Source: an uncultured bacterium (GTDB taxonomy: Bacteria; Oederibacteriota; JAAXVQ01; JAUVAV01). From it: 64,000 nt of DNA. The DNA lies in contig CAVQBK010000003.1 in NCBI GenBank assembly GCA_963710755.1, forward strand, positions 608,001 to 672,000, given 5' to 3'. The notes beneath the pieces are model-generated. The model was given only the letters and a program-made list of their open reading frames with translations. It did no database searches and was not told the origin of the DNA. The position numbers were made by a program, and so were the translations under genes. This document shows positions 1,561 through 25,373 of this stretch, piece after piece (within the stretch, counting starts at the first letter, position 1; each line of letters begins with the position of its first letter).

Positions 1561-2499
1561 TTACAGTTCCAGATTTCTAAACCGGCCATGATCCGCTTGG
1601 GATGGGCTGTCTTCAGGTTGCGGTGAGGCAGGCCGAGCATCCGCCTCTTTTACCGCATTGGGCGCGCCCAGGCTATGCATCTGCGGTTTGATTTCCACTT
1701 CACGGTCATGAAACATGAGAAAGACTTTTCCTGCCTCCACCCGGAAGCGCCGCAGCTCGGGAAAGCGGTATTGGCGCATGAGCAATTCCAACAGCGCGGC
1801 AAAATTGGGACAGCGATCAAATTCGAGCGCCGGTTCGGGCGCAGGCGCCGCGGCTTGCGGCGTTTCCAGGAACAAGGCGCCCGCTGTCCGGGCCTTGTCC
1901 CAGTTCACGCCCCTTAACTGACAATCATAAAAAAGAGCCTCCGTGAAATCCGCGTCCGTGACATCCGCATCGGACAGATCCGTTCCCAGCCACAGGGATT
2001 GCGAGAAATCACCGCGCCGCAGATCGGGTCTGCCCAGGTAATTGTTCGTGATAAAGCGGCAATGAATCAGCCGCGCCTGGCGCCAGGAGGCGCCGGTAAA
2101 TTCCGTGTTTTGAAAAAGCGTGTTATGGGCCTGCATCCCGTCCAGCAGGGCATTTTGAAAATTACAGCCCGACAATTCGCAATCCAGCCAATGGCTGTGG
2201 CGCATAGCCGCTTCCTTGGCATCGCAGTTTTCCAAGATGCCGTGCTCCCAGACGCTTTGCGGCAAGCAAGCCTGGGCCAGATTGCACGACGCCAGGCGCG
2301 AGCTGAGCAATTTGAAGCCGGGAACCACGCGGCCGGCCAGCCGCAGACGGGATAGGGTGGCGTTGATAAGGAGAAGGTCCCCGGCCTTGTCGCCGGATAA
2401 ATCCATATCCTCCCAATGCCCGTCCTTTAAGGTAAAAGGTTCCGGCGGGCCGGGCCTGGAGGGGGGCTCGTTTTCGATGAATCCACCGGGCCGGTTCAT
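1561..2499 (-). CDS. Pentapeptide-repeat protein with an extra C-terminal domain
   Basis: Runs such as DLSDADVTDADFTEA and CNFQNALLDG; ends GRFRNLEL. Confidence 0.8.
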   Translation of the reverse strand: MNRPGGFIENEPPSRPGPPEPFTLKDGHWEDMDLSGDKAGDLLLINATLSRLRLAGRVVPGFKLLSSRLASCNLAQACLPQSVWEHGILENCDAKEAAMRHSHWLDCELSGCNFQNALLDGMQAHNTLFQNTEFTGASWRQARLIHCRFITNNYLGRPDLRRGDFSQSLWLGTDLSDADVTDADFTEALFYDCQLRGVNWDKARTAGALFLETPQAAAPAPEPALEFDRCPNFAALLELLMRQYRFPELRRFRVEAGKVFLMFHDREVEIKPQMHSLGAPNAVKEADARPASPQPEDSPSQADHGRFRNLEL

Positions 2500-2502
2500 G
2501 GC

Positions 2503-2922
2503 TTAGGCCTCGGATAACACGGCATTGCCCGTACGGCGCGCTTCGCCTTCGGGCGTATAGGCGGAAAAACAATCTTCCAGTTGCAGCGGTTGTTCGGTCT
2601 GGCAATGAGGACAGGAAAAGGTCAGGGTTGTCGGCTGGTCCGTATTAATGCGGTTGTAGAGTTCCTGCAGAAAAACAAAGTCAGCCTGGAATAAATTTTC
2701 CAGCACTTCCAGGTTGATTTCCTTGATTGCGCCCAGCTGGGTCACCGTGCGCGCCAGGAGCAGCAGGGACATCATGGCCGGGTTTTTTTGTACCCGCGAA
2801 TCCGCGGCGGTCTCGATTTCATCCTTGGCCGTGACCAGACGCATCACCCCTTCGCGGTGCACGCGGCTGTTAGCGTCCTGATAGCCAAGCGGCAAGACAA
2901 ATTCATATTCTGTTTTAAGCAT
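2503..2922 (-). CDS. Phage tail assembly chaperone (eCIS-type), paralog of 9500..9862
   Basis: KTEYEFVLPLGY..G.MRL.TAKD...D.RV.KN...LL.R.VT.LG...LF.AD..L...Y.RIN...CPHC aligns by eye with 9500..9862. Confidence 0.8.
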   Translation of the reverse strand: MLKTEYEFVLPLGYQDANSRVHREGVMRLVTAKDEIETAADSRVQKNPAMMSLLLLARTVTQLGAIKEINLEVLENLFQADFVFLQELYNRINTDQPTTLTFSCPHCQTEQPLQLEDCFSAYTPEGEARRTGNAVLSEA

Positions 2923-3016
2923 GAAGGTCCCCTTATTAAATCAAAGATGCCGTGGCTTGCCACGGGGATACAGCTTTCCCTGGCCCCAATGCTCCACACC
3001 CTGGTTGTGGAGAAAG

Positions 3017-3220
3017 TTACTCTTTGGTTTCCACAATCCGCCCCTGCTGCGCCTGAGGGGCGTAGTAGTCCGTGGTTTTTTCCACGCGCACTGTTTCTCC
3101 CAGTGCCTCCTGCAAGGCGCGGGTGGCTTCCAGGCAGCGCGGTCCGGAGATGCCGCGCACATGCACGGTCACGTGGCCCTGGCTGTCGATGGTAATTTCC
3201 AGTTCCTGTTTTATTGCCAT
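3017..3220 (-). CDS. DUF2997 family protein
   Basis: EITIDSQGHVTVHVRGISGPRCLEATRALQEALG...KTTDYY; overlaps the DUF1257 gene stop. Confidence 0.8.
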   Translation of the reverse strand: MAIKQELEITIDSQGHVTVHVRGISGPRCLEATRALQEALGETVRVEKTTDYYAPQAQQGRIVETKE

Positions 3221-3615
3221 CGTCGCACCGTCAGGGTAATATTTTGATTTTCAGCCGTGGTTTCCCCGGCCACGGCATAGCCTTGGGCTTTGACTTCCCG
3301 CACCACTTTGAGGTAGGCATAGCGCTGCACGATTTTTTGCACCCACTCGGCCTGGGTGGCGCCGGAGGCGGTTTCAATACCCCACCAATCGGCAATCAAT
3401 TCATAGCTGCCGTCGGCCTTGCGCCGCACGCCGATGTCATAGGGCGTGCCCGTGCGGATGACCACATCTGCTTCCATGTCCACGCCATTCCAGCCGCGCA
3501 CCTTGACCTGGGCGCCTGCTTGGGCTGGCTGCCAGTCTAAATTCAAGACCGTGAGCGCCTCCTGCAGACAAACCAAATCCTTGATTTGGGTTTCGACTTC
3601 CGTAATATGGGACAT
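3211..3615 (-). CDS. DUF1257 (Ycf35-like) protein
   Basis: MSHITEVETQIKDL..L..AL...YDIG....DGSYELIADWW...QRYAY......GY; start placed at the MSH ATG just after the AAA stop. Confidence 0.85.
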   Translation of the reverse strand: MSHITEVETQIKDLVCLQEALTVLNLDWQPAQAGAQVKVRGWNGVDMEADVVIRTGTPYDIGVRRKADGSYELIADWWGIETASGATQAEWVQKIVQRYAYLKVVREVKAQGYAVAGETTAENQNITLTVRRWQ

Positions 3616-3617
3616 GG

Positions 3618-5156
3618 CTATTGGCTCATTTCCAGTTTGCGTGCTTGTCCGTCCGGCATTTCCGAAGGCGTCGAGGCGCGGCGCGCGCGCGACGCCGCCC
3701 ATTGCCGGATAGCGATGATTTCCTGTTCCAGGGTGCGGGACAAGGGCACGGTTTCGCGCAAAGCCTGTAAAATCTGACGGGTGGACAATTCGCTGTCCGC
3801 CTCAAAAGCATCATACAAAGCGGCAATGACCGCCTGCTCAATTTCGGAACCGCTGTAGCCGTCGCTGTTTTTGACCAGCTCATCCATGGAAAAATCTCCA
3901 GCCTGGCGCCGTCGTTTTTCCAGATGGATACGGAAGATATCGGCCCGCTCGGCGGCATTGGGCAGGTCCACGAAAAAAATATCATCAAAACGTCCCTTGC
4001 GCAGCAGCTCCGGAGGTAACTGGTTGACATTGTTGGCCGTGGCCACCACGAAAACGGGTTTGATTTTTTCCTGCAGCCAGGTAATAAAAGTTCCGAAAAC
4101 GCGGGCCGTAGTGCCGGCGTCGGAAAAGGTGGAACTTTGAGTGCCGGCAAAGCCTTTTTCCAGCTCATCCAGCCAGAGAATGGACGGCGCCACGGCTTCC
4201 GCGGTTTCAAAAGTCCGGCGCATATTTTCTTCCGATGATCCCACCACCCCGGAAAATATTTTTCCCATGTCCAGGCGCAGCAGTGGAAGTTTCCATAAGC
4301 TGCCGATGGCTTTCGCGGTCAGCGATTTTCCGCAGCCGGGTATGCCGATTAAAAGGATGCCTTTGGGATAGGGCAGCCCGAAATCCCGGGCCTTCTGGGA
4401 AAAGGCCAGACCGCGTTTGCGCAGCCACACTTTTAAAAATTCCAGGCCTCCGATATCCTCCAGCTGTTCGCGGGCCGGATAAAATTCCAGCACCCCTGAT
4501 TTGCGGATAATCTGCTCTTTTTCTCCCAGTACCACGTCCAAATCCAGGCTGGAGGTCTTAATTAGACTTTTAGCAAAAACATTTTCCGCCTCTTCGGCGG
4601 TCAGCCCCAGGGCGGCTTCCACGATGCGTTCCGTTTGATCCCCATCGGGCCTTGCCAGGGTTTGATCGGGCAAAGAAGCCCACATCTTATCCAGCAGGCG
4701 GGCCAAGTCCTGCGCTTGCGGCAGGTGAAAATGGACCAGGGCAACGGTCTTTTCCAACTCCGGAGGAATTTTGGGCAGCGGCGAAAGGAACAGCAGGGTC
4801 TTGTAGCTGGTTTTTAAAGCGTGGGCCGCATCGCGCAATTTGCGCACCACCCCCGGATCGGAAAGGTATGGGTGGAAATCAAGCAGCACAAAAAGCGCGC
4901 TCTCCTGGCTGGAGATTACCGCGTCCAGGGCGCGCAAAGGATCTTTTACATCCAGGAGTTGATTGAGGGTTTCATTGGCCAGGCCTTGGGTGATGGTCCA
5001 ACGCAGGAAGTGTTTGCCCCGGTGGTGCGCCAGGGACTTTAATCCCTGCAAAACCCGCTCCTCCTCATGTGAGACAATATAGATCAGCGGATAGCGCGCG
5101 CGGATCAGGCAATCGATTTCGGCAAGTGATTCGGAAGCAGACAGCTGTTCAGGCAT
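3618..5156 (-). CDS. Ycf46-like AAA+ ATPase
   Basis: [18 protein letters not shown]-terminus; Walker A GIPGCGKS; Walker [10 protein letters not shown]; [12 protein letters not shown]. Confidence 0.9.
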
Positions 5157-5175
5157 GGCGTTTCGTCCCCTTGAA

Positions 5176-6312
5176 TCAGCGTTTGGTCTTTAAAACGTCC
5201 TTGGAATAGTAGGGAGTGTATTTGCAAAACAGGCATTCGTCCCAGTCGTCCTTCATCACCCGCTTGCACGCGGGACAGCGGCGCTTATAGCCTGGGACAG
5301 GCGCGGTCAAAAACCAAACCAGGGCCAGAATAATCAACGAGGCGGCGAGCACAATCAGCACAATGCGCAGCACTTTTTGCCAGAAGGTCAGGGGCTTGGC
5401 AATGGCCAGAAACCCTTTGGTTCCGACCACTTCCTTGCCACCCAACGTGTTTTTAAGGGTAAGCTGGTGCATTTGGCCGTCGCCCTGGATGCCGCGGCTG
5501 CGGAACTTGATCACAAATCCTTTTTGAATTTGATTCAGTATGTTCAGCACATTCTGGGACAACAGGGATTCTTTGGCGGCAAAAAGGTAGGCGCCGCCGC
5601 TGCTTTCCGCAATGGACTTGATCTGAGGCAGATAACTGCCGGAAAGCAGGGTATACCCAATGGCATAAATGGGAATATTGCTTTTTTTGATTCGTTGCTG
5701 CAGTTCGGCTTTGGTGAGAATAATACCACTGTTGCGGCCATCGGTGATCACGAGGATGGCCTTGCGTTGGACGGTGGATTTGGAGAGTGTTTCCAGGGCC
5801 TGCCAAAGCGCATCGTAGAGCGTGACTTCGTCACCAAAGGTGTTCATTTTTCTGATCTTGATACGGCGGTCCTCTTTTTTGTCGTTGGCGCTGGAAACGG
5901 TCTCTACCCGGTCGCCATACGCCAAAATGGTCATTTGATCATGGGGGCTAAGCTTGGAGGCCAGGTGCAGCACGGCTTTCTTTTCGTTTTCCAAAGGCTG
6001 CCCTTTCATGACACCGCTGGCCATGAGGACCACGGCCAGATGAACGCCTTCCCGGCTGAATTTAAAAGGCACGGCGTTCAACCGGGCGCGGCTGGTGGCG
6101 CCGTCTTCGAGCAAACTCCAGGAAGAGGGTTGAACATCGGTGACAGGCTGCTCCTGCTGGTTCAGCAAGGTGGCGTAAACCGTCAGATCGGGAAAACGGT
6201 CGGCGTCAATTTGATCGATGCGCAAATGGCCGGCGTAGGCGGATTTTCCCGCCACCAGGCATAGCGCCAAGATCAGGAAGGTTCGTTTCCAAACAACATT
6301 CGTTGATGTCAT
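5176..6312 (-). CDS. Exported vWA-domain protein with C-terminal TM helix and zinc ribbon
   Basis: Signal peptide; degenerate MIDAS (MASGVM...TLYDAL...VITDGRN); TM IVLIVLAASLIILALVWFL; CPAC...CLFC. Confidence 0.8.
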   Translation of the reverse strand: MTSTNVVWKRTFLILALCLVAGKSAYAGHLRIDQIDADRFPDLTVYATLLNQQEQPVTDVQPSSWSLLEDGATSRARLNAVPFKFSREGVHLAVVLMASGVMKGQPLENEKKAVLHLASKLSPHDQMTILAYGDRVETVSSANDKKEDRRIKIRKMNTFGDEVTLYDALWQALETLSKSTVQRKAILVITDGRNSGIILTKAELQQRIKKSNIPIYAIGYTLLSGSYLPQIKSIAESSGGAYLFAAKESLLSQNVLNILNQIQKGFVIKFRSRGIQGDGQMHQLTLKNTLGGKEVVGTKGFLAIAKPLTFWQKVLRIVLIVLAASLIILALVWFLTAPVPGYKRRCPACKRVMKDDWDECLFCKYTPYYSKDVLKTKR

Positions 6313-6322
6313 GCCTGCACCT

Positions 6323-6718
6323 TTATCGTTTTAATAAAAATTTGGGAACGCATTTAAAAATAAATTCCAAATCCCCTAATTGCAAAGGATAGTTATCGAT
6401 CAACTCGGCATCATGAACCTGCGCGCCATTGACGCGCGTGCCTTTGGTGGAATTCAAATCGGCCAAAGTGAATTCGTCGCCGTTCATATTGCGGATAAAG
6501 GCGTGTTCCGGTGAAATGGAGGTATGCTTTAAGACAATATCATTTTTATCCAAAGAGCCAATGGTGTTTTTGCCCTCGCGAATGGGAAAATCCATGCCCA
6601 AATAAAGGCCATTGGTGCCCAGCAGCCAGCCTACGACCGGTTTGAGGCAGGTGGGACAAATTTTCCAGGAAGGATGCATTATATGTTTTTTTCTGCAAAC
6701 TTTTAATCTTCTCAGCAT
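6323..6718 (-). CDS. Zinc-ribbon plus FHA domain protein
   Basis: CRKKH..W..CPTC, then NTIGS...ISPEHA...DLNSTKGTRVNG. Confidence 0.85.
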   Translation of the reverse strand: MLRRLKVCRKKHIMHPSWKICPTCLKPVVGWLLGTNGLYLGMDFPIREGKNTIGSLDKNDIVLKHTSISPEHAFIRNMNGDEFTLADLNSTKGTRVNGAQVHDAELIDNYPLQLGDLEFIFKCVPKFLLKR

Positions 6719-7064
6719 AATCCTTGATCTCCATTGGCCGGACTAGCGTAGCCGCAGTTTCACAAAACAAATACTCATTATCCATGTTTAGGCTTGGAAA
6801 GCAAGGAGTTTTTGGACGTGGCCGATCGGGCAAGGATGGCGGGAAGCCCTTGTTAATCATATAAAGCCGAAAGTGTGTCAATTAAAGCTTCCCTTACGCA
6901 AACATTTGGTTTAAAATTTCCCAGTTCCATAAAATAAGATTTTTGTCTTAATTAATCTATTAAGAAGATTTTTGCCTACATTCTATATAAAATGCCATAC
7001 AGCAAGCCGTCCGGTGTTTAGTCCTGAAGTGATGAACATTTAATGCATTCATTCAAGCCAGTAC

Positions 7065-7081
7065 GGGGCATTGTAGTTGCA
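7065..7081 (+). promoter_or_regulatory. Candidate sigma-54 (-24/-12) promoter of the eCIS structural operon
   Basis: GGGGCATTGTAGTTGCA: GG(7067-68)-N10-GC(7079-80) with TTGCA core, about 40 nt before ATG 7120. Confidence 0.5.
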
Positions 7082-7119
7082 CAATAAAGGCCATGACTTG
7101 ATGTGTTTAAAGGAAATCA

Positions 7120-7695
7120 ATGACGGAGAGTGCTGTTTCCATGGATCCTATCAACTGTATAGAAGCGATGGGCGCTTTTCTCAAAGAGAAGGTTCACGAG
7201 CATCATCAATTAACTCTTGGGATGGAATTCAATCCGCCTACTGATGAGCGCCTGCGTGAAAAAAAATTATTCATCTTTCCTTATGAAATCAAAGAAGACC
7301 TTTTAAAAGCCAATAAAAGCAGAAGCCATTTCACCGCCACCGATAAAAATGGAAAACCCTATGAATACGAAACCCTGCCGCCCTTTTATGGACAGCTCAC
7401 CCTGATCCTGACCTGCAATGCGGAATCCTCCCTGCATAGTTCGATTCTCCTGCTTAAGGTTCAGCAAATCATACAAGAATACGGCACCTTTAAAGTTCAG
7501 GACGAAGTCGTGCCCTTCAAAATACTTTCATCATTTTCCATGTCAAATTTGGCGGACCTATGGCGCAGCCTGGGCGTGCCTTTTCGACCGGCTTTAGCCA
7601 TGCAGATAAACCTGGAATTGGCACCAGTGCGCCGCTGGAACATCAAATTGGTTAAAGAACGGATTATTCATACCAGTATTAATGAAGATAAATAA
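7120..7695 (+). CDS. eCIS tail terminator/cap (DUF4255, Afp16/Pvc16-like)
   Basis: LFIFPYEIKED...LPP...LADLWRSLGVPFRPAL...VKER; first gene before the sheath. Confidence 0.8.
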   Translation: MTESAVSMDPINCIEAMGAFLKEKVHEHHQLTLGMEFNPPTDERLREKKLFIFPYEIKEDLLKANKSRSHFTATDKNGKPYEYETLPPFYGQLTLILTCNAESSLHSSILLLKVQQIIQEYGTFKVQDEVVPFKILSSFSMSNLADLWRSLGVPFRPALAMQINLELAPVRRWNIKLVKERIIHTSINEDK

Positions 7696-7721
7696 AATAA
7701 ATCAGCACAAAGGGGGTAAGC

Positions 7722-8915
7722 ATGCCAACGTATCAAACACCGGGAGTGTATGTGGAAGAAAGGGAAGGAACGTCCAAACCCATCGAGTCGGTGGGAACAT
7801 CGGTGGTGGGCTTTTTGGGTATCTCCCAAAAAGGGCCCGTCAATGAACCGAAATTAATTACCAATTGGTCTCAATTTACGGCCACCTTCGGCGATTTTGA
7901 ACACAGCGACTATTTGGCCCATGCGGTTTACGGATTTTTTGCCAATGGCGGTGGGCGTTGCTATGTCAGCAATGTAGGGTCCGGCAAGGATGATCGCCGA
8001 AAAAATATCGAACCGCCCAAGGAAGGGCAGCCAGCCCCCGCGCCGGCGCCGGACAAGGGCTTTGACGCGCTTTTTATCGGCGAGGATAAGGGCCCGGGCG
8101 CGCGTTCGGGAGTAAAGGCTTTTGAAGACATCGATGATATTTCAATTGTGTGCGCGCCGGGCATTACGTCTCCCGCGATTTGGGATGCTTTGTTGTCGCA
8201 TTGCGAAAACAAGAAAGACCGTTTTGCCATTTTGGATTCACCGCGCGAAATCAAAGCCATCGACCAAATGCCCAAACCAAGGGATTCCAAATACGGCGCT
8301 TATTATTTCCCCTGGATCAAGGTCTACGATCCCTTGAAAAAGAAGGAGGTCTCCATGCCGCCGAGCGGCCATATGGCGGGTATTTATTCCTTTGTGGATG
8401 GCTCACGCGGGGTGCATAAGGCACCGGCCAATGAAGTAATACGCGGGGCCCTGGGGTTGGAATACCGCATCAGTCATGGGGAGCAGGAACTGCTCAATCC
8501 CAAGGGGATCAACTGCCTTCGTGAATTCCCCGACCGCGGCATTCGGGTGTGGGGAGCACGCACGATTTCCAGTGATCCGGCCTGGCGTTACATTAACGTG
8601 CGCCGCCTGTTCATTATGGTCGAAAAATCCATAGAAATCGGGACGCAGTGGGTGGTGTTCGAACCGAATGACATGAAACTTTGGAAAAAAATTCAGCGCA
8701 ATATCAGCGCGTTTCTGTTGCGGGTATGGCGCGACGGCGCCCTCTTCGGCACCACGCCGGAGGAAGCTTTTTACGTCAAATGTGACAGCGAAACCAATCC
8801 GCCTGAAGTCATTGACGCGGGTCAGGTGGTGATCGAGGTCGGTATCGCCCCGGTCAAACCCGCGGAATTTGTCATCTTCCGGATAGCCCAGAAAGCGTAT
8901 GGCAAGGAAGACTAA
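7722..8915 (+). CDS. Contractile tail sheath protein (Afp2/3/4-like)
   Basis: MPTYQTPGVYVEE; FFANGG; RFAILD; PPSGH; KAPANE; RVWGART; WRYINVRR; FEPND; PVKPAEFV. Confidence 0.95.
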   Translation: MPTYQTPGVYVEEREGTSKPIESVGTSVVGFLGISQKGPVNEPKLITNWSQFTATFGDFEHSDYLAHAVYGFFANGGGRCYVSNVGSGKDDRRKNIEPPKEGQPAPAPAPDKGFDALFIGEDKGPGARSGVKAFEDIDDISIVCAPGITSPAIWDALLSHCENKKDRFAILDSPREIKAIDQMPKPRDSKYGAYYFPWIKVYDPLKKKEVSMPPSGHMAGIYSFVDGSRGVHKAPANEVIRGALGLEYRISHGEQELLNPKGINCLREFPDRGIRVWGARTISSDPAWRYINVRRLFIMVEKSIEIGTQWVVFEPNDMKLWKKIQRNISAFLLRVWRDGALFGTTPEEAFYVKCDSETNPPEVIDAGQVVIEVGIAPVKPAEFVIFRIAQKAYGKED

Positions 8916-9061
8916 AAGCGACTCAGAAAGAGGATGACTGGTGATCCCTATGGGGATGAAAGGTGACGGGCCCGATCACGGCTAGGGTGGTCGGGCATTG
9001 ACACCAGGCGTGACCGAACTTGCGCACTAGCATTGAACAATATCAAAAAGGAGGATACATT

Positions 9062-9496: not shown

Positions 9497-9499
9497 GCT

Positions 9500-10289: not shown

Positions 10290-10298
10290 AAGGTACCT

Positions 10299-12316: not shown

Positions 12317-12322
12317 CCGGGC

Positions 12323-15432: not shown

Positions 15433-15470
15433 AAAGCACGGGGACAAAGTTGAGAATGAAGAGGGGCGGG

Positions 15471-17450: not shown

Positions 17451-17462
17451 AGGAGCTATAAA

Positions 17463-17681
17463 ATGTGCTGGTTCAAAAATGAATATTATATCGTAGGAAA
17501 CCGTCCGGTCAAATTTATTACGGATTTTAGTGGAATGGATATTTTAGCCTATGATTGGAAGAAAAAAACTTTTGTCAGGGATATGAGTTATTTGTCCAAG
17601 GTTTTTTCTTCAGAGGAAGTTGAGCAAGTCAGCAAATGGGCTTTTAACGCTTATGTTAAAAAATTGAAAACTGAAAAATGA
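17463..17681 (+). CDS. Small protein, candidate immunity protein
   Basis: 72 aa, AAGGAG RBS, 12 nt after the toxin stop, same AT-rich composition. Confidence 0.65.
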   Translation: MCWFKNEYYIVGNRPVKFITDFSGMDILAYDWKKKTFVRDMSYLSKVFSSEEVEQVSKWAFNAYVKKLKTEK

Positions 17682-17699
17682 GTTAAGAAGGAGGACCCC

Positions 17700-18326
17700 A
17701 TGACCACATCCCTGGAAAAGGCCACCATCACCAATCTGGACACCAATGAGGAAATCAGGGTGTTGTTCAATCCCAAGGAGTACGAGCTTTCCAAGCAGAC
17801 GCCCTGGCGGGAGCATGTGATCCAGGGGCTGGATTCGCCGGCTGTGCAGTTCACCACCGGCGAGCGGCAGGTACTGGCCATGGAATTGTTTTTCGATACC
17901 ACCGATGATAACAGCGACGTGCGCAGCCATACGGAAAAGGTGGAAAAGCTCATGCTGGTGGACGCGGACCTGCACCGGCCGCCTCTGGTCATGTTCAGCT
18001 GGGGTAGAATGAAGTTCAAGGGCGTGCTGGAAGACTTGGCCCAGCGCTACACCATGTTTTTAAGCGACGGCACGCCGGTGCGGGCGGTGCTGAATGTGAT
18101 CCTGCGCGAGTACGCCACTTCGGCCAGCCAGTTTCAGGCCAAACCGCGCAACAGCGCGGACCATACCAAGGTGAAAAAAATGGAGCAGGGTGACAGCCTG
18201 GCCAGCCTCGCCAACCGTGAATACCATGACCCGGAAAAATGGCGGGTGATCGCCGAAGCCAATGGGATTGATGATCCCATGAATGTGCCGGTGGGCAAGA
18301 CCCTGAAACTGCCGCCGATCAAATAA
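17700..18326 (+). CDS. CIS tube initiator with LysM domain (Afp7-like)
   Basis: LEKATI...FNPKEY...LFFDT...RPPLV.F.WG...F.SDGTPVRA; GDSLASLA.REY.DP..WRVIAEAN. Confidence 0.9.
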   Translation: MTTSLEKATITNLDTNEEIRVLFNPKEYELSKQTPWREHVIQGLDSPAVQFTTGERQVLAMELFFDTTDDNSDVRSHTEKVEKLMLVDADLHRPPLVMFSWGRMKFKGVLEDLAQRYTMFLSDGTPVRAVLNVILREYATSASQFQAKPRNSADHTKVKKMEQGDSLASLANREYHDPEKWRVIAEANGIDDPMNVPVGKTLKLPPIK

Positions 18327-18405
18327 CTATCCACAAGGGTGATTCAATCCAGGGAAATCATCCTTGTGGCGGACTCGTCATATTTACACTATAAGGAGAC
18401 TCACC

Positions 18406-19449
18406 ATGCCGGCCACTGATGTTTTAGTCCCAAATTACCTGGTGAAAATCAACGGCCAACGCCTGACCCAGGCCATGGCCGCCGATGTCATGGAGGTGCG
18501 GGTGGAGGAAAAACTGGATCTGCCCGCGCGCTTCAGCCTGATGTTAAGCGATCCGGACCATCAGTGGGTCAATGCCCATGACCTGGCCGAGGGCGGCAGC
18601 GTCAAGGTGGAGCTGGGGTACTTAAATGACACGGTGGAATTATTCGACGGCGAGATCACGGGGTTGTTTTTCGATTATCCGGCCCACGGGCCCAAGACCA
18701 TGACCGTGCGCGGTTATGACCGGCTCCACCGCCTGGCGCGGGAGAAAAAAACGCGCACTTTCCGCGACATGCAGGAAAGCCAGATTGTGCAACAAATCGC
18801 AGGAGACGCTTCCCTGCAAAACGACGTGGAGAGTACCACTGAAGCCCAACCCTATTTGCTGCAGAACAACCAGACCGATCTGGAGTTTTTGCACGAGCGC
18901 GGCGAGCGCCTGGGGTTTGAGTTGGGCATCAGTGGTGAAAAACTAATCTTTCGCAGGCCCAAGGAAAATTTGGAGCCTGTGGCCACATTGGAATTGGGCA
19001 AATCGCTCATGGAGCTTTCCGGTGACATCAGCACCATTGGCCAGGTGAGCGCGGTGGAAGTGCGGGGCTGGGATGCGCAGAGACAGGAAGTGGTGGTGGG
19101 CACAGCCGGCACGGAATCCCAGAATACCACCATGCGTGGCAGCCAAAGCGGCGCGGATTCAGCCAGGCAGGTATTTGGCAGCAATAAAGTGGTGATTCTG
19201 GACAATGCGTCCCATTCCACCACAGAGGCGGAGAATCTCGCCAAGGCCCGTTTCCGTGACTTTGCCATGCGTTATGTCACGGTGGACGGCAGATGCCAGG
19301 GCAATCCCAAGCTGCGGGTGGGCAGCACCATCTCGATCAAGGGCGTGGGCGACAAAGTGAACGGTACCTATTATGTTGTGGAGGCTGCCCATGAATTGGG
19401 CGAGAGCGGGTATGTGACGGGCTTCAAACTTCTTAGGAATGCCAGGTGA
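18406..19449 (+). CDS. Baseplate hub, phage late-control gpD-like (N-terminal half of Afp8/VgrG only)
   Basis: VELGY....LFDGEIT...RGYD.LHRL.R....RTF...Q.NQTDLEFL...VEVRGWD...GNPKLR.G...GTYYV..A.H; 347 aa with no gp5/gpV spike part. Confidence 0.88.
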   Translation: MPATDVLVPNYLVKINGQRLTQAMAADVMEVRVEEKLDLPARFSLMLSDPDHQWVNAHDLAEGGSVKVELGYLNDTVELFDGEITGLFFDYPAHGPKTMTVRGYDRLHRLAREKKTRTFRDMQESQIVQQIAGDASLQNDVESTTEAQPYLLQNNQTDLEFLHERGERLGFELGISGEKLIFRRPKENLEPVATLELGKSLMELSGDISTIGQVSAVEVRGWDAQRQEVVVGTAGTESQNTTMRGSQSGADSARQVFGSNKVVILDNASHSTTEAENLAKARFRDFAMRYVTVDGRCQGNPKLRVGSTISIKGVGDKVNGTYYVVEAAHELGESGYVTGFKLLRNAR

Positions 19450-19452
19450 CCT

Positions 19453-19875
19453 ATGAATAAAAATATCCTGGGCGCAGGCTGGCGCCTTGATCTTCAAACC
19501 GACCGGCGTGGCAATCTTGCGCTCATCACCGGCGCGGCCGGCGTGGAGCAAGCCATGCGTTTTATTATTGGCACCGCGCCGGGCGAGCGGCCCATGCTTC
19601 CTGATTTCGGTTGCCGCATCCATGATCTGCTATTCGCGCCCAGCACCCCGCATACCTGGAATTTGGCCGCCCACCATGTTGAGGAAGCGCTGATCAAATG
19701 GGAACCGCGCATAGAGTTGATCAAGGTGGAAGCCGGGCCCAGTCCTGATGATGACAGTTGCGTGCTGGTGCAGGTGGAGTACAAGATCCGGCAGATCAAC
19801 AGTTTTTATAACCTGGTGTATCCTTTTTACCTGGAACAGGGCGAACAGGATACGCGCAGCCAACTGGAGGTATAA
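19453..19875 (+). CDS. Baseplate gp25/GPW (Afp9-like)
   Basis: LGAGW...I.TAPGERPMLPDFGC.IHDLLF...WEPRI...NLVYPFYL. Confidence 0.92.
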   Translation: MNKNILGAGWRLDLQTDRRGNLALITGAAGVEQAMRFIIGTAPGERPMLPDFGCRIHDLLFAPSTPHTWNLAAHHVEEALIKWEPRIELIKVEAGPSPDDDSCVLVQVEYKIRQINSFYNLVYPFYLEQGEQDTRSQLEV

Positions 19876-19877
19876 GC

Positions 19878-22800
19878 ATGATCCCCAAACCGAATTTGGA
19901 CGACCGTACGCACCGGCAGATCATGGAAGAAGCCATCCGGTTGATCCCGCAATACTGTCCGGAATGGACCAATCATAATCCCAATGACCCTGGTATCGCC
20001 TTGCTGGAATTGTTCGCCTGGATGATGGAAATGGGGTTGTACCGCCTTAACCGCGTGCCGGAAAAAACCTATCTTACCCTGATGGAGCTGATGGGCATCC
20101 AACTCAAAAGCGCCCAGGCTGCCAAAGTGTTGGTGCGCTTTGCCCTGGCTGAAGGCAGACAAAAGCAGCAATGGGTGCCGCTGGGCACGTCGGTGGCCAC
20201 GGCGCAGACCGAGGAAACCGATGCCGTTGTTTTCGAGACCAGCCGTCCCTTGCTGGTGACGGATGTGCGGTTGGAGCGCTGCGTGAGCGTGGAGGATGAC
20301 CGTGTCAGCGACAACAGCGGCATCGTGGCGCGCGAAGAATCGACCGCGGCTTTTCCTGTTTTTCAAAGCCACACCCCCATGGAACGGTCCTTGTATATTG
20401 GGGACAGCCAATTGGAAATGCTCAAGGACGCCATGCAGGTGAATATCAGCTTGAAGACCGGTTCTGTGCTGGAAGCGCCTATCAGCTCCCTGCTGGCATG
20501 GGAATACTACAATGGACGGCGTTGGGTGGAGGCCGAACCGCTCAGCGGGTTTGGGCAGCAGCCGGACCGGTATAATCAGTTTGTCTTTCAGGGCCCCTTA
20601 GTCGGCATTGCTGCTGTTGAGGTGGCCGGGCTGGAAAAGATATGGCTGCGGGCAAAGCTGTTATTGCGCCCCGTGCATCCGCGCCAAGCCGCGGTTCTAT
20701 CAGCCGGGGTGAAGACGGTGTTGTCCACCGAAGGCCTGGCGCCAGAAATGTGTTTTGCCAACGCGGAAAGCCAGCTTTTTGAGGTGCTCGATTTAAGCAA
20801 GGATTTCCATCCCTTTTCCAAAAAACCAAAATTCAATGATGCCTTTTACCTGGCGTGCCGCACGATTTTTGCTAAAGCCGGCGCGCGCGTTACCCTGTCC
20901 GTTACCTTCACTACCAATCCCTCCATTCCCAAGCCGCAAGCCTCCGAGGATCTGATGATCGCATGGGAATACTGGGACGGGCAAAACTGGCGCAATCTGG
21001 GCAATAGCCGTTGCCAGCCGGGCGTGGAACCGGAGGGGGAGCATGCCTTTTTGGACAGCACGGCCGCGCTGACGCAGGAAGGGGAAATCACCTTTATTGC
21101 TCCGGCGGACTGGTCCCCGGGCAGTGTCAACCAGATCGAAAACTATTGGTTGCGCGCCCGTTTATTGACAGGTGATTTTGGCGTGGGAGGAAACTATGTG
21201 CAAAATGAAAAGGGAGAGTGGATCTGGAATTTTGATCGTCCCTTGCTGCCGCCGGTATTGTCCAAATTGAGCCTGCGTTATGCCTTGGAAGAAAAACCAG
21301 CCCAAGCCCTGGTGGCTGTCAACGCCGGACAGAGCAAGGATGCCAGCGCGGTCTGCGCGGAAAATTTTCAACTTCTCCAGGACGGCAAGCCTCCCAAACC
21401 GGCGGACCTGTTCACCTGGCAGCTGGAAAAAAATCCGGTTTGTTATTTCGGATTTTCCGATCCTTTTCCCGCGGAGGAGCAACAGCTGTATTTTTTGCTT
21501 AAAGACAGCGAGGTGTTTGCCGGCCAGGATGGTGAAGAAGCGCCGGTCACCTTGGCTTGGGAATACTGGAACGGGCAGGCCTGGCATGCTCTGGCAGTGC
21601 AGGATCATACGCTGGGGCTTAGCCACAGTGGTTTGCTGCTGTTTACGGGGCCCAAGGATATTGCAGCCAGCGAATTATGGGGGAGCCGCCAGTATTGGCT
21701 GCGCGCGCGTTTGGAATATGGCAGTTATGAGAAAATTCCTTATTTGAGCCGGGTCTGGACCAATGTAGTCGAAGCCAACAGCTGGCGCACCATCCGCAAT
21801 GAAATTCTGGGCTCCAGTGACGGCGCGCCCGGCCAAGGTTTTAGCCTGCTGCAAACACCGGTGGTCGGAAACCCGGAAATCTGGATCATTGAACCCAATT
21901 TGGCTTCCAGTCCGGAACTGGAAAGCTTCATGCGGACCGCGGGGCAGCAGGCCGTACGGGAAATAAATACGCCCGATGGACGCCAGGTTGCCACCCGCTG
22001 GCAACGGGTGGATTATTTTTATAATTCCACACCTTCTGATCGTCACTATTTGCTCGATCCGGCATTTGGAAAAATTCAATTTGGCGACGGCCTTCATGGC
22101 CGGATTCCGCCTGAAGGGCGCAACAACATTCAGGCTGCCCTTTACACTGTCGGCAGCGGAGCCGAGAGCAATGTTGGTGTTAATACTATCACGGTCATGC
22201 GTAAATCCATCCCGTTTATCAGCAAAGTTTGGAACCCTGTTCCTGCTGAAGGCGGGGCTGATGCGGAGACCGTGGACGAAGCCAAGTTGCGCGCACCCCA
22301 TTTATTTAAACACCGTTTCCGGGCGGTGACTGCGGATGATTATGAATGGCTGGCCAAGGAAGCGTCCAGCCAGGTTGCCCGCGCGCGCTGCCTGCCCGCG
22401 CATCGCCGAGAAGGCGAGGTCACGATCGTGATCGTCCCCAAAGCGCCGGGCAATCACCTGGATCTGCGCGAGCGCCTTGAACCGAGCCGGGAATTGTTGC
22501 GCCGGGTTACGGCCTATCTGGATGAACGGCGTTTGCTGACCAGCCGTTTGCATGTCATTGGCCTGGCCTATGCTGATCTGGGTATCCAGGCTGAGATTGC
22601 CGTAAAAACATCCACCAGCGAGGGGAGCCAGGCGGTGAAAACCGAGGTGGAAAAAAGAATCCGCGAATTTTTACATCCCCTGACCGGCGGACCGGACGGG
22701 CAAGGCTGGCCATTTGGCATGGCGGTGGGCAAGTCCGATTTATACATTGCCCTGGAAAAAGTGCCGGGCGTGCACTTTGTTTCCGAAATCCGGCTGATGG

Positions 22801-22898
22801 ATCTGGATAGTCAAGCTGAAGTGGAAAAATTGGTACTCGAACCGAGGGTGTTCGCTTTTCCAGCGCAGGTGCAAGTAACGGAAAAAAGAATGTATTAA
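19878..22898 (+). CDS. Baseplate J-like wedge protein (Afp11-like)
   Basis: PNLDDR...IPQYCPEWTNHNPNDPGIALLELFAW; LGSSDG.PGQ; FGDG.HGRIP; GGAD.ET; RAVT.DDYE; FLHPLTGG.DG.GWPFG. Confidence 0.92.
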   Translation: MIPKPNLDDRTHRQIMEEAIRLIPQYCPEWTNHNPNDPGIALLELFAWMMEMGLYRLNRVPEKTYLTLMELMGIQLKSAQAAKVLVRFALAEGRQKQQWVPLGTSVATAQTEETDAVVFETSRPLLVTDVRLERCVSVEDDRVSDNSGIVAREESTAAFPVFQSHTPMERSLYIGDSQLEMLKDAMQVNISLKTGSVLEAPISSLLAWEYYNGRRWVEAEPLSGFGQQPDRYNQFVFQGPLVGIAAVEVAGLEKIWLRAKLLLRPVHPRQAAVLSAGVKTVLSTEGLAPEMCFANAESQLFEVLDLSKDFHPFSKKPKFNDAFYLACRTIFAKAGARVTLSVTFTTNPSIPKPQASEDLMIAWEYWDGQNWRNLGNSRCQPGVEPEGEHAFLDSTAALTQEGEITFIAPADWSPGSVNQIENYWLRARLLTGDFGVGGNYVQNEKGEWIWNFDRPLLPPVLSKLSLRYALEEKPAQALVAVNAGQSKDASAVCAENFQLLQDGKPPKPADLFTWQLEKNPVCYFGFSDPFPAEEQQLYFLLKDSEVFAGQDGEEAPVTLAWEYWNGQAWHALAVQDHTLGLSHSGLLLFTGPKDIAASELWGSRQYWLRARLEYGSYEKIPYLSRVWTNVVEANSWRTIRNEILGSSDGAPGQGFSLLQTPVVGNPEIWIIEPNLASSPELESFMRTAGQQAVREINTPDGRQVATRWQRVDYFYNSTPSDRHYLLDPAFGKIQFGDGLHGRIPPEGRNNIQAALYTVGSGAESNVGVNTITVMRKSIPFISKVWNPVPAEGGADAETVDEAKLRAPHLFKHRFRAVTADDYEWLAKEASSQVARARCLPAHRREGEVTIVIVPKAPGNHLDLRERLEPSRELLRRVTAYLDERRLLTSRLHVIGLAYADLGIQAEIAVKTSTSEGSQAVKTEVEKRIREFLHPLTGGPDGQGWPFGMAVGKSDLYIALEKVPGVHFVSEIRLMDLDSQAEVEKLVLEPRVFAFPAQVQVTEKRMY

Positions 22899-22911
22899 AA
22901 GCGAGGAGTTT

Positions 22912-23772
22912 ATGACTGCCCTTTCATCTGAAACAGCAGGGACCACCGTGCGCATGCCTGATCTCAGACGCCGGCCTTTGACCCAGGCCAAGACCATGCT
23001 GAGCCTGTCCGGATTGCGCCTGGGGAAAATTGTATACCAAGAAAGCATGGAATGGCTGGCCGAAGATACGGTGCTTAGCCACCATCCCCAGCCCGGGCAG
23101 GCTGCCGGCGCGGGGCAAGCCGTGGACCTTACCCTCCATCGCCGCAGCTATTTACACTATTTGCCGGGTATGATGCAGCAGGAAGACCAGCGCGCCGGGG
23201 GGCTGTTGAAAAATTATTTATGGATTTTCCAGCATTTGCTGGCAGGCTTTCAAGACAACATCAACCGCCTGCCCGACTGCTTTGGCCCGCAGACCGCGCC
23301 CCGTGCATTTTTACTGTGGCTGGCTGAATGGACCGCGGCTGAGATCGACGGGGATTGGCCCGAGGCCAAGGTGCGCCGTTTTTTGGCACAGGCCGTGGAA
23401 ATCTACAACCGGCGGGGGACCCGCCGGGGACTGCTTCAATACCTCAGCGTGGTGACCGGGGTGGACGCTGCGATTGAGGAACACACCATCCCTTTTAAAC
23501 TGATGGTACTGGATGGAACCAACAGCCTGGGTGTGAGTTCCATGCTTTTTAACGCGCCCCGTTTGGAGCATTGCTTCACTGTGCGTCTGCCCGGGCCGAG
23601 GACTGCTTATGCCCGGGCCGTGCTGCGTAAAATGCACCGCATTTTGCAGGTCGAGCAACCGGCACAAACCTTGTATTTTATTGCATTTACCGAAAGCCGT
23701 AAAACCTATCAATCCCTTGTGCCTTGGATCATAGGCCAGACGCCTCTCGGCCAGGGCTGGGTGGGAGGTTAA
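22912..23772 (+). CDS. P2 gpI-like baseplate/tail protein with N-terminal PASTA domain
   Basis: MPDLRRRPLTQAKTML..SGL...TVLSHHPQPG....VDLTL (PASTA); YLP..Q...P..FLLWLA.W...IY.RRGT.RGL..YL (gpI). Confidence 0.8.
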   Translation: MTALSSETAGTTVRMPDLRRRPLTQAKTMLSLSGLRLGKIVYQESMEWLAEDTVLSHHPQPGQAAGAGQAVDLTLHRRSYLHYLPGMMQQEDQRAGGLLKNYLWIFQHLLAGFQDNINRLPDCFGPQTAPRAFLLWLAEWTAAEIDGDWPEAKVRRFLAQAVEIYNRRGTRRGLLQYLSVVTGVDAAIEEHTIPFKLMVLDGTNSLGVSSMLFNAPRLEHCFTVRLPGPRTAYARAVLRKMHRILQVEQPAQTLYFIAFTESRKTYQSLVPWIIGQTPLGQGWVGG

Positions 23773-23843
23773 AACTCCCACCCAGCCCCCTCTTTAATAA
23801 AGAGGGGCAGCGAGTGGGCGTTAAATTCATGCAGGAGGCAGGC

Positions 23844-25373
23844 ATGTCGATTAAACTTGAAGAATTAAAAGAAAGTACCTATGTCAACTATTTCCAGGGC
23901 CTGGTGGTTTCGGAGCAGCATCTCAATGGCACGAACCGCTACCATACGGAGAAGCGACTGCTTACCCATCAGCTTTTTCATGGCTCGGGCATTGTTCCCG
24001 GGGTTATGAACGAGTTGCGGGTATCAGCCCATCAGGGCGGTGATGGGCTGACACTGGAAGTGGGCAGCGGCATCTGCCTCGATCCCCAGGGCCGGGAGAT
24101 CATTGTTCCCGAACCCAAACTGCTCAGCCTAGATCTTAAAAAATACAAACCGCCGCGCACCATTTATGTGGTGGCCGCCCATCTGGAAAATCAGGAAGAG
24201 CATTATGTCAATGAAGCCAATCCCGCCTACCAGGGCTATCAAGCCGTGCGCGAAACCAGCAAAGTGGAGATCATCGGCCAGGAACCTGAGTCCGGCCGCC
24301 AGATCGAATTGGCGCGGATCACCTTGCAGGAAGGCAAGGGCAAAGGCCAGAACATTGCCCTTCAGGATGCGCGGGATTTCGGCAATCCTCAAGCCAATGA
24401 AATCGACCTGCGCTTCACGCCTTGGTGCCGGGCGGCCAGCGCCGCTCTTTCTCCTGATCTGTCTTCCCATCTGGCCTTTATCCTGGAACGTACCCGAGAC
24501 AGCGCCGCCCTGCTGGAGGAGGAGATCAAGATCCAGGCGTTGCGCGAGTTGCAACTGGTGGCCAGCACAAGCTTGATTGTGGTTTCCGGCGGGCAGATGA
24601 GCTTTAATAATCTCATCCACCTGCTCAAGCCTTTGATCCGGCTGGATCAAAAAATCGTGCAGGAACTGCAGGACCTTGAAAAAAACACAGCCAAAAAACA
24701 TTACACCACCATGGAGATGTTTGAACAATACAAGCCTCTGGCCGCTGGGCTTTCCCAAGCCTTGGAGCGTTACAATCATTCAGTCGAGGAATTTTACCAG
24801 ATCATCAACGGCCACCGGCAGGGTATGGATCTGCTCAGCCGTATGCTCACCCGGAAACGCCTGACTTGGGAAGATGTCCGGCTGCTCAGTGATGACCTAC
24901 CTCAGGTGCTATTGGTCGGAGAGACCAAGTACAAACTTGTGGACAGCATGGAATTCGGCTCCAAGGAGAATCTTGAAGCCCATCTGTTCACGGTCCAGGG
25001 CAGCCGCGATCAAATACCCAATCTACAAAGTTTCACCTATCCTGACGGCAAAGCCGTCAAGGATGTGGTCATGAGCTACCGTGGCGGCAACTGGACCTGG
25101 AAGGTGCGCAACTGCCTGCCCAACAAGCCCCTGGTCATGGTGCGGCGTTTTGACTACTTCCACGGCTCACTGGAATTTGAGATCGCGGTCAATGGAAAAT
25201 CCGCAGGCAGCCTGCTCATTGACGGCCGGGACACGCACAACCGCTGGCGCAACTGGGCTTTTCAAATGAATGCCCAATTGATGAATTCGGATACAGTGGA
25301 AATCTCCCAGCGCTGGATCAAAGGCCAGCAGGACGGCGTGGCCAGACTATGGTTTTATCAACCGGTGGTATAA
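23844..25373 (+). CDS. Fibre-like baseplate-attached protein (Afp13 position) with C-terminal beta-rich domain
   Basis: VNYFQG......L..Y..KR.L....HG.GIV.G.L.V...V..G..LD.QGREI N-terminus as in eCIS fibre proteins; GGAGG RBS before ATG 23844. Confidence 0.65.
   Translation: MSIKLEELKESTYVNYFQGLVVSEQHLNGTNRYHTEKRLLTHQLFHGSGIVPGVMNELRVSAHQGGDGLTLEVGSGICLDPQGREIIVPEPKLLSLDLKKYKPPRTIYVVAAHLENQEEHYVNEANPAYQGYQAVRETSKVEIIGQEPESGRQIELARITLQEGKGKGQNIALQDARDFGNPQANEIDLRFTPWCRAASAALSPDLSSHLAFILERTRDSAALLEEEIKIQALRELQLVASTSLIVVSGGQMSFNNLIHLLKPLIRLDQKIVQELQDLEKNTAKKHYTTMEMFEQYKPLAAGLSQALERYNHSVEEFYQIINGHRQGMDLLSRMLTRKRLTWEDVRLLSDDLPQVLLVGETKYKLVDSMEFGSKENLEAHLFTVQGSRDQIPNLQSFTYPDGKAVKDVVMSYRGGNWTWKVRNCLPNKPLVMVRRFDYFHGSLEFEIAVNGKSAGSLLIDGRDTHNRWRNWAFQMNAQLMNSDTVEISQRWIKGQQDGVARLWFYQPVV

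Follow-up and report, generated by a model that had tools for sequence, protein, structure and literature searches.

A Ycf46-type ATPase module associated with a widespread lineage of extracellular contractile injection systems

Positions 1561-25373 of the DNA analyzed here carry two divergent operons: a structural operon of the extracellular contractile injection system (eCIS) type on the plus strand (7120-25373) and a tightly packed accessory operon on the minus strand (6718-1561), whose genes are spaced by -10 to 94 bp. The DNA is a stretch of 64,000 nucleotides, G000:C3:608001-672000, which we refer to as the window. The accessory operon encodes a Ycf46-type AAA+ ATPase (the window AAA), a DUF1257 protein and a DUF2997 protein, together called the trio, and also a zinc-ribbon-FHA protein, a vWA membrane protein, a second copy of a tail-assembly-chaperone-like protein (TAC2) and a pentapeptide-repeat protein. 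An association between this module and eCISs is strongly supported by comparative genomics. An earlier note, made from the DNA sequence alone, had described divergent operons across an intergenic region of about 400 bp; the region measures 401 bp, and the gene content and coordinates hold. The features are as follows, with the supporting matches in brackets.

1561-2499, minus strand: pentapeptide-repeat protein, 312 aa, with a fused C-terminal domain (Pfam Pentapeptide_4, 6e-15)
2503-2922, minus strand: TAC2, second eCIS tail-assembly-chaperone-like copy, 139 aa, with CxxC near the C-terminus (PHROG 508, 6e-11)
3017-3220, minus strand: DUF2997 protein, 67 aa (PF11211, 1.9e-15; PHROG 23133, 3e-11)
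3211-3615, minus strand: DUF1257 (Ycf35-like) protein, 134 aa from the conserved start (PF06868, 7e-23)
3618-5156, minus strand: Ycf46-type AAA+ ATPase, 512 aa (PF00004, 7e-28)
5176-6312, minus strand: vWA membrane protein, 378 aa (PF00092, 6e-15; transmembrane residues 308-342)
6323-6718, minus strand: zinc-ribbon-FHA protein, 131 aa (PF00498, 3e-15)
6719-7119, no strand: divergent intergenic region, 401 bp (open reading frame map)
7120-7695, plus strand: Afp16-like tail terminator/cap, 191 aa (Pvc16_N, 5e-9)
7722-8915, plus strand: sheath 1, 397 aa (Phage_sheath_1, 3e-20; Phage_sheath_1C, 7e-19)
9020-9496, plus strand: tube 1, 158 aa (Phage_T4_gp19, 5e-37)
9500-9862, plus strand: TAC1, chaperone-like, 120 aa (TAC2 paralog)
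9855-10026, plus strand: small open reading frame (ORF), 57 aa, with an ATG overlapping the TAC1 stop (read from the sequence)
10299-11816, plus strand: sheath 2, 505 aa (Phage_sheath_1C, 4e-11)
11855-12316, plus strand: tube 2, 153 aa (Phage_T4_gp19, 5e-36)
12323-14737, plus strand: Ala/Pro-rich protein, 804 aa, in the tape-measure position (no family match)
14734-15432, plus strand: DUF4157 (eCIS core domain) protein, 232 aa (PF13699, 2e-16; HExxH motif)
15450-17450, plus strand: DUF4157 protein with cargo-like architecture, 666 aa (PF13699, 7e-19)
17463-17681, plus strand: 72-aa ORF behind the putative cargo gene (no family match)
17700-18326, plus strand: Afp7-like tube initiator with LysM, 208 aa (CIS_tube, 1e-34; LysM, 6e-5)
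18364-19449, plus strand: Afp8-like baseplate hub, 361 aa (Phage_GPD, 4.5e-10)
19453-19875, plus strand: gp25-like wedge protein, 140 aa (GPW_gp25, 5e-23)
19878-22898, plus strand: Baseplate J-like protein with a long N-terminal extension, 1006 aa (Baseplate_J, 9e-20)
22912-23772, plus strand: gpI-like baseplate protein with PASTA, 286 aa (Tail_P2_I, 2e-9; PASTA, 7.5e-6)
23724-25373, plus strand: 549-aa lineage-conserved protein (p549) after gpI (no family match)

All seven eCIS markers (Afp7, Afp8, Afp9 or gp25, Afp11 or Baseplate J, Afp16, sheath and tube) score above the Pfam curated cut-offs, and PF00004, PF06868 and PF11211 fall in consecutive accessory genes, giving the arrangement AAA, DUF1257, DUF2997. 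The earlier note had named these families correctly, but two of its gene models had to be changed. DUF2997 is encoded by the 67-aa ORF at 3220-3017 and not by the 73-aa ORF at 2941-3162, which has no family match, and the DUF1257 gene most likely starts at 3615, because an N-terminal M-S-H is invariant in 22 of 22 orthologs; the upstream ATG at 3702 is an unlikely start. A consensus scan for promoters and terminators across 1300-7300 returned four sites against 3.6 expected from shuffled sequence, none of them inside 6719-7119.

We surveyed gene neighborhoods around relatives of the window AAA. The best 80 of 464 relatives (one genome per species) were examined with 10-kb flanks, and 22 of these 80 loci contain eCIS genes. 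All 22 are from Spirochaetota; 21 have at least two structural genes, and the remaining one, L014 on a 3.6-kb contig, has a single Afp8 match. The Spirochaetota genes lie on one strand in the order DUF1257-gpI-p549-FHA-vWA-sheath-tube-Afp7-Afp8-X-AAA-DUF2997-TAC2. Breznakiella homolactica RmG30, whose genome is complete (locus at about 1.90-1.94 Mb), has its trio distributed between two structural operons of opposite orientation. In one, DUF1257 lies between tube 1 and TAC1; the other begins with DUF2997-TAC2 and closes with the Afp8, Fer4_12, AAA and spike genes. Adjacent genes overlap or are separated by a few bases. The closest relative of the window locus, L190 (72% identity in the sheath and 62% in the AAA), has the order gpI-p549-..-FHA-vWA-AAA-DUF1257-DUF2997-TAC2-penta. 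A Planctomycetota locus (L168) has its accessory block divergent from the sheath operon, like the window; a Myxococcota genome (G426) has a single 37-kb cluster with AAA-DUF1257-DUF2997-DUF4157-penta at its 3' end; and G357 has the trio 4 kb upstream of sheath 1. Orthologs of p549 (27-43% identical) adjoin FHA in Spirochaetota, L190 and L195, and p549 stands directly 5' of FHA-vWA in other phyla. Outside Spirochaetota, physical linkage is seen in Planctomycetota, Myxococcota and one further metagenome-assembled genome. Linkage thus persists through at least five gene orders in five phylum-level groups, and the accessory block appears to be part of the machine's gene set rather than a chance neighbor. 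The earlier note had proposed co-occurrence of the trio with eCISs elsewhere as a check and had assigned the trio to a distinct eCIS subtype; the survey was strongly positive in other phyla and supports placing the trio, with the FHA, vWA, second chaperone and pentapeptide proteins, in a distinct eCIS lineage.

Scans anchored on structural genes need to be read with their reach in mind. With sheath 1 as the anchor and 10-kb flanks, the trio was found in only 1 of 80 loci, but the idea that the nearest eCIS relatives lack the trio was rejected as an artefact of flank size, the Myxococcota block lying 20-35 kb from sheath 1 or on another contig. A scan of contigs with Afp7 as the single query protein gave 12 loci, all ordinary eCISs without the block; it missed the Spirochaete loci and is too insensitive to serve as a census. 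A search of five Spirochaete genomes for the Pvc16_N family gave no match, but its control likewise gave none and the result is uninformative.

Co-occurrence was also counted over whole genomes. Among 201 Myxococcota genomes, scored for sheath 1 at E <=1e-100 and for the AAA at >=500 bits, 47 have the sheath and 52 the AAA. The AAA is present in 44 of 47 eCIS-positive genomes versus 8 of 154 eCIS-negative ones, with 146 genomes having neither and 3 the sheath only; the corresponding Fisher p of 2e-32 is overstated, since relatives are not independent and the threshold was set after the scores. A paralog of the AAA with lower identity (39-47%) is common in Myxococcota regardless of eCIS. Across 201 Spirochaetota genomes, an AAA of 57-58% identity occurs in two, both among the five that carry the lineage's baseplate-J. 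The other three show no AAA at all, but their loci look incomplete and are uninformative: contig ends truncate the one in G236, and Afp7 is likewise missing from G178 and G241. Two Spirochaete loci have the AAA only, with long flanks and no eCIS genes, and the same genomes have a sheath on another contig. Of 99 genomes from the window's own phylum, three have the AAA, and the window genome alone has a full-length lineage baseplate-J. Other members of its genus, family and order showed neither gene, which points to horizontal acquisition: the interval 1561-25373 is probably an acquired island of a widespread eCIS lineage found in Myxococcota, Planctomycetota and Spirochaetota.

The relationship of the window AAA to the Afp15-type ATPases of known eCISs was examined through a second eCIS locus in the same genome. 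This locus lies at G000:C3 ~205000-225000 (L001 4669-19856 and L002 1-1839), about 390 kb upstream of the window's, and includes Baseplate_J, gp25, a Phage_base_V spike, tube and a 722-aa AAA protein. The 722-aa ATPase directly adjoins a 389-aa Pvc16_N protein and has a weak WHD match (2e-4). It shares 44.6% identity (218 bits) with a 735-aa ATPase from a Serratia marcescens plasmid, which has a WHD-variant domain (8.5e-23) and is followed by a Pvc16_N gene, the Afp15-Afp16 arrangement. The window AAA shares 30% identity over 142 aa (61 bits) with the 722-aa protein and 25% over 255 aa (52 bits) with the Serratia ATPase, in both cases within the AAA core only. It has no WHD domain match in Pfam and lies away from the cap gene, with FHA, vWA and the 401-bp region between them, on the opposite strand from Pvc16_N. 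With its similarity to both Afp15-type proteins confined to the core (25-30% identity), the window AAA is not an Afp15 ortholog.

That note had also seen no Afp15/Pvc15 ATPase in the structural operon. None is encoded there or elsewhere within the window, where the only other AAA protein is FtsH (40543-42411). A canonical Afp15 does exist elsewhere in the genome, which qualifies the note's proposal; the co-occurrence of trio and eCIS in other genomes supports it. Of 15 other genomes with the window's eCIS lineage, 8 gave no clear Afp15-family ATPase: it is absent (<=55 bits) from G001-G005, which include the complete Breznakiella genome, and from G309, and weak (86 bits) in G306 and G307. In a Myxococcales locus (L195, 9833-11116), an Afp15-family ATPase (32% identity, 182 bits) directly follows AAA-DUF1257, and both ATPase types lie within one accessory block. 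The lineage can exist without an Afp15-type protein, the complete Breznakiella genome being an example, but neither ATPase excludes the other.

Residues 231-510 of the window AAA most resemble p97/Cdc48 D2 (E 1e-53). All 91 AAA relatives retain Walker A, Walker B (Glu E331 in the window protein) and the two arginine fingers, and 90 retain sensor-1. The N-terminal 235 residues were modeled with a predicted local distance difference test score (pLDDT) of 89.8, and Foldseek matched this N-domain model to AAA+ folds with a probability of 1.0 and E ~1e-7 (at least 500 matches, including RUVBL, proteasome Rpt, FtsH and p97 D1), although residues 1-222 contain no Walker A motif. The model and the motifs together indicate a degenerate AAA-fold module joined to a classical AAA module whose catalytic motifs are intact. 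Close relatives are named "SpoVK/Ycf46/Vps4 family" by JGI, and look-alikes of the N-domain are most frequent in Cyanobacteriota in the Atlas, which is a lead only. In a tree of 91 sequences, built after one of 92 had been dropped for an internal stop, the window AAA falls within a 31-member clade (SH-aLRT 99) with Nitrospinota, Planctomycetota and Spirochaetota sequences, its placement inside the clade being unsettled and its branch long. The eCIS-linked ATPases form a well-supported clade of their own (31 of 91 sequences).

The other accessory proteins add to the link with the machine. TAC2 and TAC1 share 44% identity across 109 aa (E 4e-33), and the earlier note was right that the accessory operon holds a paralog of the eCIS tail chaperone. 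TAC2 matches PHROG 508, "tail assembly chaperone" (6e-11), and Pfam Gp41_Mu at 5e-4 (20.5 bits against a cut-off of 27); the chaperone assignment of TAC1 derives solely from its 44% identity to TAC2. Orthologs of TAC2 follow DUF2997 in 11 loci, with stop-over-start overlap in at least six, and TAC1, a conserved component in this eCIS class, follows the tube gene in 56 of 80 sheath-anchored loci (52-63% identity). A complex prediction for DUF2997 and TAC2, from 22-row and 12-row alignments and without controls, scored 0.00 against a mark of 0.32 and is informative neither way. All 22 DUF1257 sequences, from five phyla, share the M-S-H start and a D-W pair without variation, whereas the second W varies; such constancy is unusual at a protein start (window 3603-3615) and suggests a functional N-terminus. 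The AlphaFold2 model of DUF1257 has a pLDDT of 92, and Foldseek found no PDB match for it at E <=0.001; the best hit of a wide VIA search, a KA1-like alpha+beta fold with Z 6.8, is in the range that the tool itself rates as noise, and no fold was assigned. Sequence searches of the PDB with DUF1257 and TAC2 gave nothing meaningful.

The vWA protein has an N-terminal hydrophobic signal or anchor, the vWA domain, one transmembrane segment (approximately residues 305-345) and a C-terminal CxxC-x10-CxxC zinc ribbon, and this architecture is kept in 16 of 17 orthologs. Its FHA partner has a CxxC within the N-terminal 13-27 residues in 17 of 18 orthologs, with a fuller C..H..CxxC ribbon in 16, and in one Spirochaete (G255; L096 10917-12449) FHA and vWA are fused in a single 510-aa frame. 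The C-terminal part of the pentapeptide protein (residues 226-312) corresponds to separate small genes in Spirochaete eCIS loci. Its terminal motif, GRFxNLE[LI], is common to the window (1561-1830 region), L013, L054 and L099 and may be a docking or recognition tag. PADLOC gave no match for six of the seven block proteins, and for the ATPase only AAA-core matches (IetA at 87 bits, and TRIP13).

Within the structural operon, sheath 1 is 57-72% identical to the sheaths of related loci, the Afp7-like protein is 54-63% identical to its Spirochaete orthologs, and in Spirochaetota and Myxococcota the 1006-aa Baseplate J protein is matched over its full length at 34-41% identity. The operon gave no match to CIS_spike_tip, PAAR or Phage_base_V. 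The 804-aa protein has no Pfam, NCBIfam or PHROG match and is a putative tape measure by its position; p549 has no match to family profiles, PHROG included. The C-terminus of the 666-aa DUF4157 protein has a RelA_SpoT match (9e-5) below the cut-off, and G+C content falls to 0.454 across 16-18 kb, the region of this gene. It may be a nucleotide-pyrophosphokinase-type cargo encoded with an immunity gene, the 72-aa ORF at 17463-17681; that ORF has no Pfam, NCBIfam or PHROG match, and its immunity role is a guess. The 9855-10026 ORF lies in the -1 frame relative to TAC1 with its own ATG across the stop codon, and no slippery heptamer was seen; these features suggest a small gene coupled to TAC1 more than a product of G/GT-type frameshifting. 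An AT-rich gap of 272 bp separates it from sheath 2. Ten kilobases downstream of the operon, at 34042-36600 on the minus strand, are genes for a 316-aa protein with Gp53-like_C and H-type lectin domains (35650-36600) and then a 535-aa unknown protein, which are possible detached tail-fiber genes of the eCIS.

The available text on AlgoCIS describes Alg15, its Afp15 homolog, as non-structural and absent from particles, with its ATPase activity and Walker B site needed for cargo loading into the tube lumen, and describes the cargo as having a disordered N-terminal region, DUF4157 and a C-terminal effector domain (10.64898/2026.05.27.728243). We lean, by a little, toward reading the accessory block as a recruited, ATPase-driven loader or remodeller that serves the eCIS of this lineage. 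The AAA would be a hexameric, non-structural unfoldase or remodeller doing the job of Afp15/Pvc15/Alg15, passing DUF4157-type cargo, tape-measure-chaperone complexes or both into the tube as it grows. DUF1257 and DUF2997 would be substrate adaptors, TAC2 a possible bridge, and the cytoplasmic FHA and membrane-spanning vWA proteins a phosphorylation-dependent regulatory or anchoring pair that sets the place or time of this step. This model draws on the presence of two DUF4157 proteins and no Afp15 in the window operon, on the Ycf46-type protein being the sole ATPase that travels with the lineage, and on the Alg15 precedent. The parts of the reading differ in strength. Cooperation of the module with the eCIS is highly probable; a role specifically in loading or assembly falls slightly short of an even chance. 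A narrower version, in which Ycf46, Ycf35 (DUF1257) and DUF2997 make up a portable unfoldase with two adaptors that became a dedicated eCIS loader gated by an FHA-vWA transmembrane switch, we regard as doubtful.

Several observations weigh against reading the block as a loader. The window genome also has the 722-aa Afp15-type ATPase, and the canonical Afp15-Afp16 pair of its second eCIS could in principle act in trans. A clear Afp15-family ATPase (175-247 bits) is present in 7 of the 15 other lineage genomes (G304, G305, G308, G426, G357, G310 and G390); together with L195, these show that replacement of Afp15 is no strict rule, and the AAA may add to Afp15 instead of replacing it. The pore-loop position 304 is mainly aliphatic, not aromatic, in the 91 relatives. 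The tie between AAA and eCIS is genomic, and among eCIS-positive genomes no high-identity AAA was seen in 3 of 47 from Myxococcota and 3 of 5 from Spirochaetota. The 500-bit threshold was picked with the score distribution known, among related and non-independent genomes. The trio also occurs outside eCISs: in Nitrospinota (L003 and L007) it stands without an eCIS, G512 having no sheath and G513 partial matches only; more distant trio paralogs in Spirochaetota and the window's phylum are without eCIS genes in 10 of 10 loci; around the AAA of an Armatimonadota clade (L005-L081, 47 sequences, 53-59% identical), DUF1257, DUF2997 and eCIS genes are all missing within 10 kb; and phages encode all three families (PHROGs 8638, matching the AAA at 4e-143, 20456 and 23133). 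The trio is a general module that this eCIS lineage recruited, and it is not confined to eCISs.

The phage AAA homologs are full-length and 30-38% identical, come mainly from Mycobacterium, Pseudomonas, Rhizobium and Rhodobacter phages (for example Mycobacterium phages Dylan and Firecracker and Rhizobium phage vB_RleS_L338C), and are annotated only as AAA-ATPase. A phage-tail origin of the trio was set aside, there being no visible contractile-tail link, although the neighbors and tail type of the phage genes were not looked at.

The main rival to the loader reading is a cell-associated mode resembling the type VI secretion system (T6SS), in which the vWA protein would anchor or sense, FHA would couple firing or assembly of the machine to Ser/Thr phosphorylation, and the AAA, instead of loading cargo, would recycle or dismantle sheath-tube complexes that have contracted or misassembled, like ClpV. 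An FHA protein and a membrane-anchored vWA protein are conserved with the present system, fused in L096, the vWA protein spanning the membrane with a predicted cytoplasmic zinc ribbon in 16 of 17 orthologs. FHA weakly matches YscD-type models of type III secretion and TagH-type models of the T6SS, there are two sheath paralogs, and no lysis cassette was noticed in the operon; moreover, a zinc-ribbon-FHA protein with a vWA protein is, by the description in PMC6509490, a known phospho-dependent module, ArnA/ArnB. The FHA likeness nevertheless amounts to 22 bits for VI_FHA against a cut-off of 120, the AAA is of the p97-D2 type and not the Hsp100/ClpV type, and the window genes do not match the T6SS accessory set of TagH-type FHA, ClpV and TssJLM. 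No kinase, phosphatase or TssJLM-like complex was seen in the window, a genome-wide search not having been made, and the Pvc16_N cap and DUF4157 cargo-type genes are typical of released eCISs, with a tail-fiber-like gene 10 kb downstream. We consider a T6SS-like mode improbable, though it deserves more weight than the two alternatives that follow.

A stress or proteostasis role has been assumed for cyanobacterial Ycf46 and Ycf35, and the trio might be an independent module of this kind that travels on a mobile island, its adjacency to the eCIS being functionally meaningless. It does stand alone in Nitrospinota and, as more distant paralogs, in the window's phylum and Spirochaetota; several genomes of Myxococcota and Planctomycetota carry it on another contig or more than 10 kb from the sheath, and a Ycf46-like AAA at E 1e-100 is found in 142 of 201 Myxococcota genomes. 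Yet it is only the high-identity subclade that tracks eCIS (44 of 47 versus 8 of 154), which the common lower-identity paralog does not, and Spirochaetota trio genes are interleaved with structural genes in overlapping or nearly abutting frames. With the linkage running through at least five gene orders in five phylum-level groups, and an eCIS chaperone paralog after DUF2997 in 11 loci (overlapping frames in at least six), meaningless adjacency is very unlikely. Still less probable, to the point of being hard to credit, is a role in self-protection or conflict, for instance as an immunity or abortive system, driven by the ATPase, that protects the producing cell from RelA/SpoT-like cargo of its own or from phages. 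Prokaryotic conflict systems often contain vWA, FHA and AAA domains, as described in PMC7159879, the AAA core resembles the defense ATPases IetA and IteA (81-87 bits), and the cargo candidate has a weak RelA/SpoT-like domain. But the IteA score is 81 bits against a cut-off of 510, PADLOC returned nothing for six of seven proteins and generic AAA-core matches for the ATPase, no block protein resembles a known immunity protein, and the block stays constant across loci whose DUF4157 cargo genes differ.

Compared with known systems, the locus resembles Afp, PVC and AlgoCIS in its cap, sheath, tube, LysM initiator, GPD hub, gp25, Baseplate J, gpI and DUF4157 proteins and in keeping an AAA+ gene with the cluster. 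It differs in that its ATPase is of another family, with no WHD-variant N-domain and 25-30% identity in the AAA core, and in adding DUF1257, DUF2997, zinc-ribbon-FHA, the vWA membrane protein, a second chaperone and the pentapeptide protein. The trio, encoded in one operon, matches the Ycf46, Ycf35 (DUF1257) and DUF2997 set of cyanobacteria and plastids in its families, and its ATPase, of about 500 aa with an N-domain and one active AAA domain, is a candidate Ycf46 ortholog; the window's trio, however, lies inside a contractile-injection cluster and occurs in non-photosynthetic bacteria. The p97/Cdc48 likeness consists of the D2-like active domain, a second AAA-fold module ahead of it and small partner proteins encoded alongside; the window protein differs in a first module without Walker A, in the lack of a p97-type N-domain and in the mainly aliphatic position 304. 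As in Sulfolobus ArnA/ArnB and T6SS Fha/TagH, a small zinc-ribbon-FHA gene adjoins a vWA gene, and the two are fused in one relative; the window's vWA protein differs in spanning the membrane and in carrying a C-terminal zinc ribbon itself. Near the window block, neither kinase nor phosphatase genes were seen.

Our literature searches found no paper pairing contractile injection with Ycf46, none on DUF1257 or DUF2997 that concerned contractile injection systems as judged by titles and abstracts, and no combination of eCIS or Afp15 with FHA and von Willebrand domains. The accessory families are unmentioned in the available text of two eCIS surveys (PMC6899500 and PMC12210884), whose supplementary tables may list them. 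According to the former (Chen et al., 2019), eight subunit types, Afp15 among them, form the core and occur in over 85% of loci.

The present locus defines an eCIS lineage, found in 47 of 201 Myxococcota genomes and in Spirochaetota and Planctomycetota, with a helper set unlike the textbook set of Afp and PVC, and classifying or engineering eCISs by Afp15 would misread it. To our knowledge, Ycf46, Ycf35/DUF1257 and DUF2997 are conserved in cyanobacteria and plastids with no biochemical activity assigned to them. Their recruitment here provides the trio with candidate clients (cargo, chaperone and tube) and a countable output in the form of loaded particles; if the trio is indeed a dedicated loader, eCIS genomes would offer the first system that reads out the activity and substrates of the Ycf46 family directly. 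The FHA-vWA pair further suggests membrane and phosphorylation control of eCIS assembly or loading, a kind of control that is known for the T6SS but of which we found no description in the searched parts of the eCIS papers.

Some smaller observations concern the surroundings of these genes. In Breznakiella (L020 9387-9959), a 190-aa Fer4_12/radical-SAM-like protein is encoded between Afp8 and the AAA; a slot of about 600 bp recurs at this place in other Spirochaete loci and has no counterpart in the window. The genes that flank the window's two operons, at 182-1504 on the minus strand and 25624-26841 on the plus strand, are inverted paralogs with 47-49% identity. They belong to an outer-membrane-protein-like family (weak DUF5723) that has 14-37 matches per genome in the window's order, and as members of a multicopy family they proved unusable for setting the borders of the island by synteny. 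A homolog of these flanking genes adjoins the eCIS in another locus, L110.

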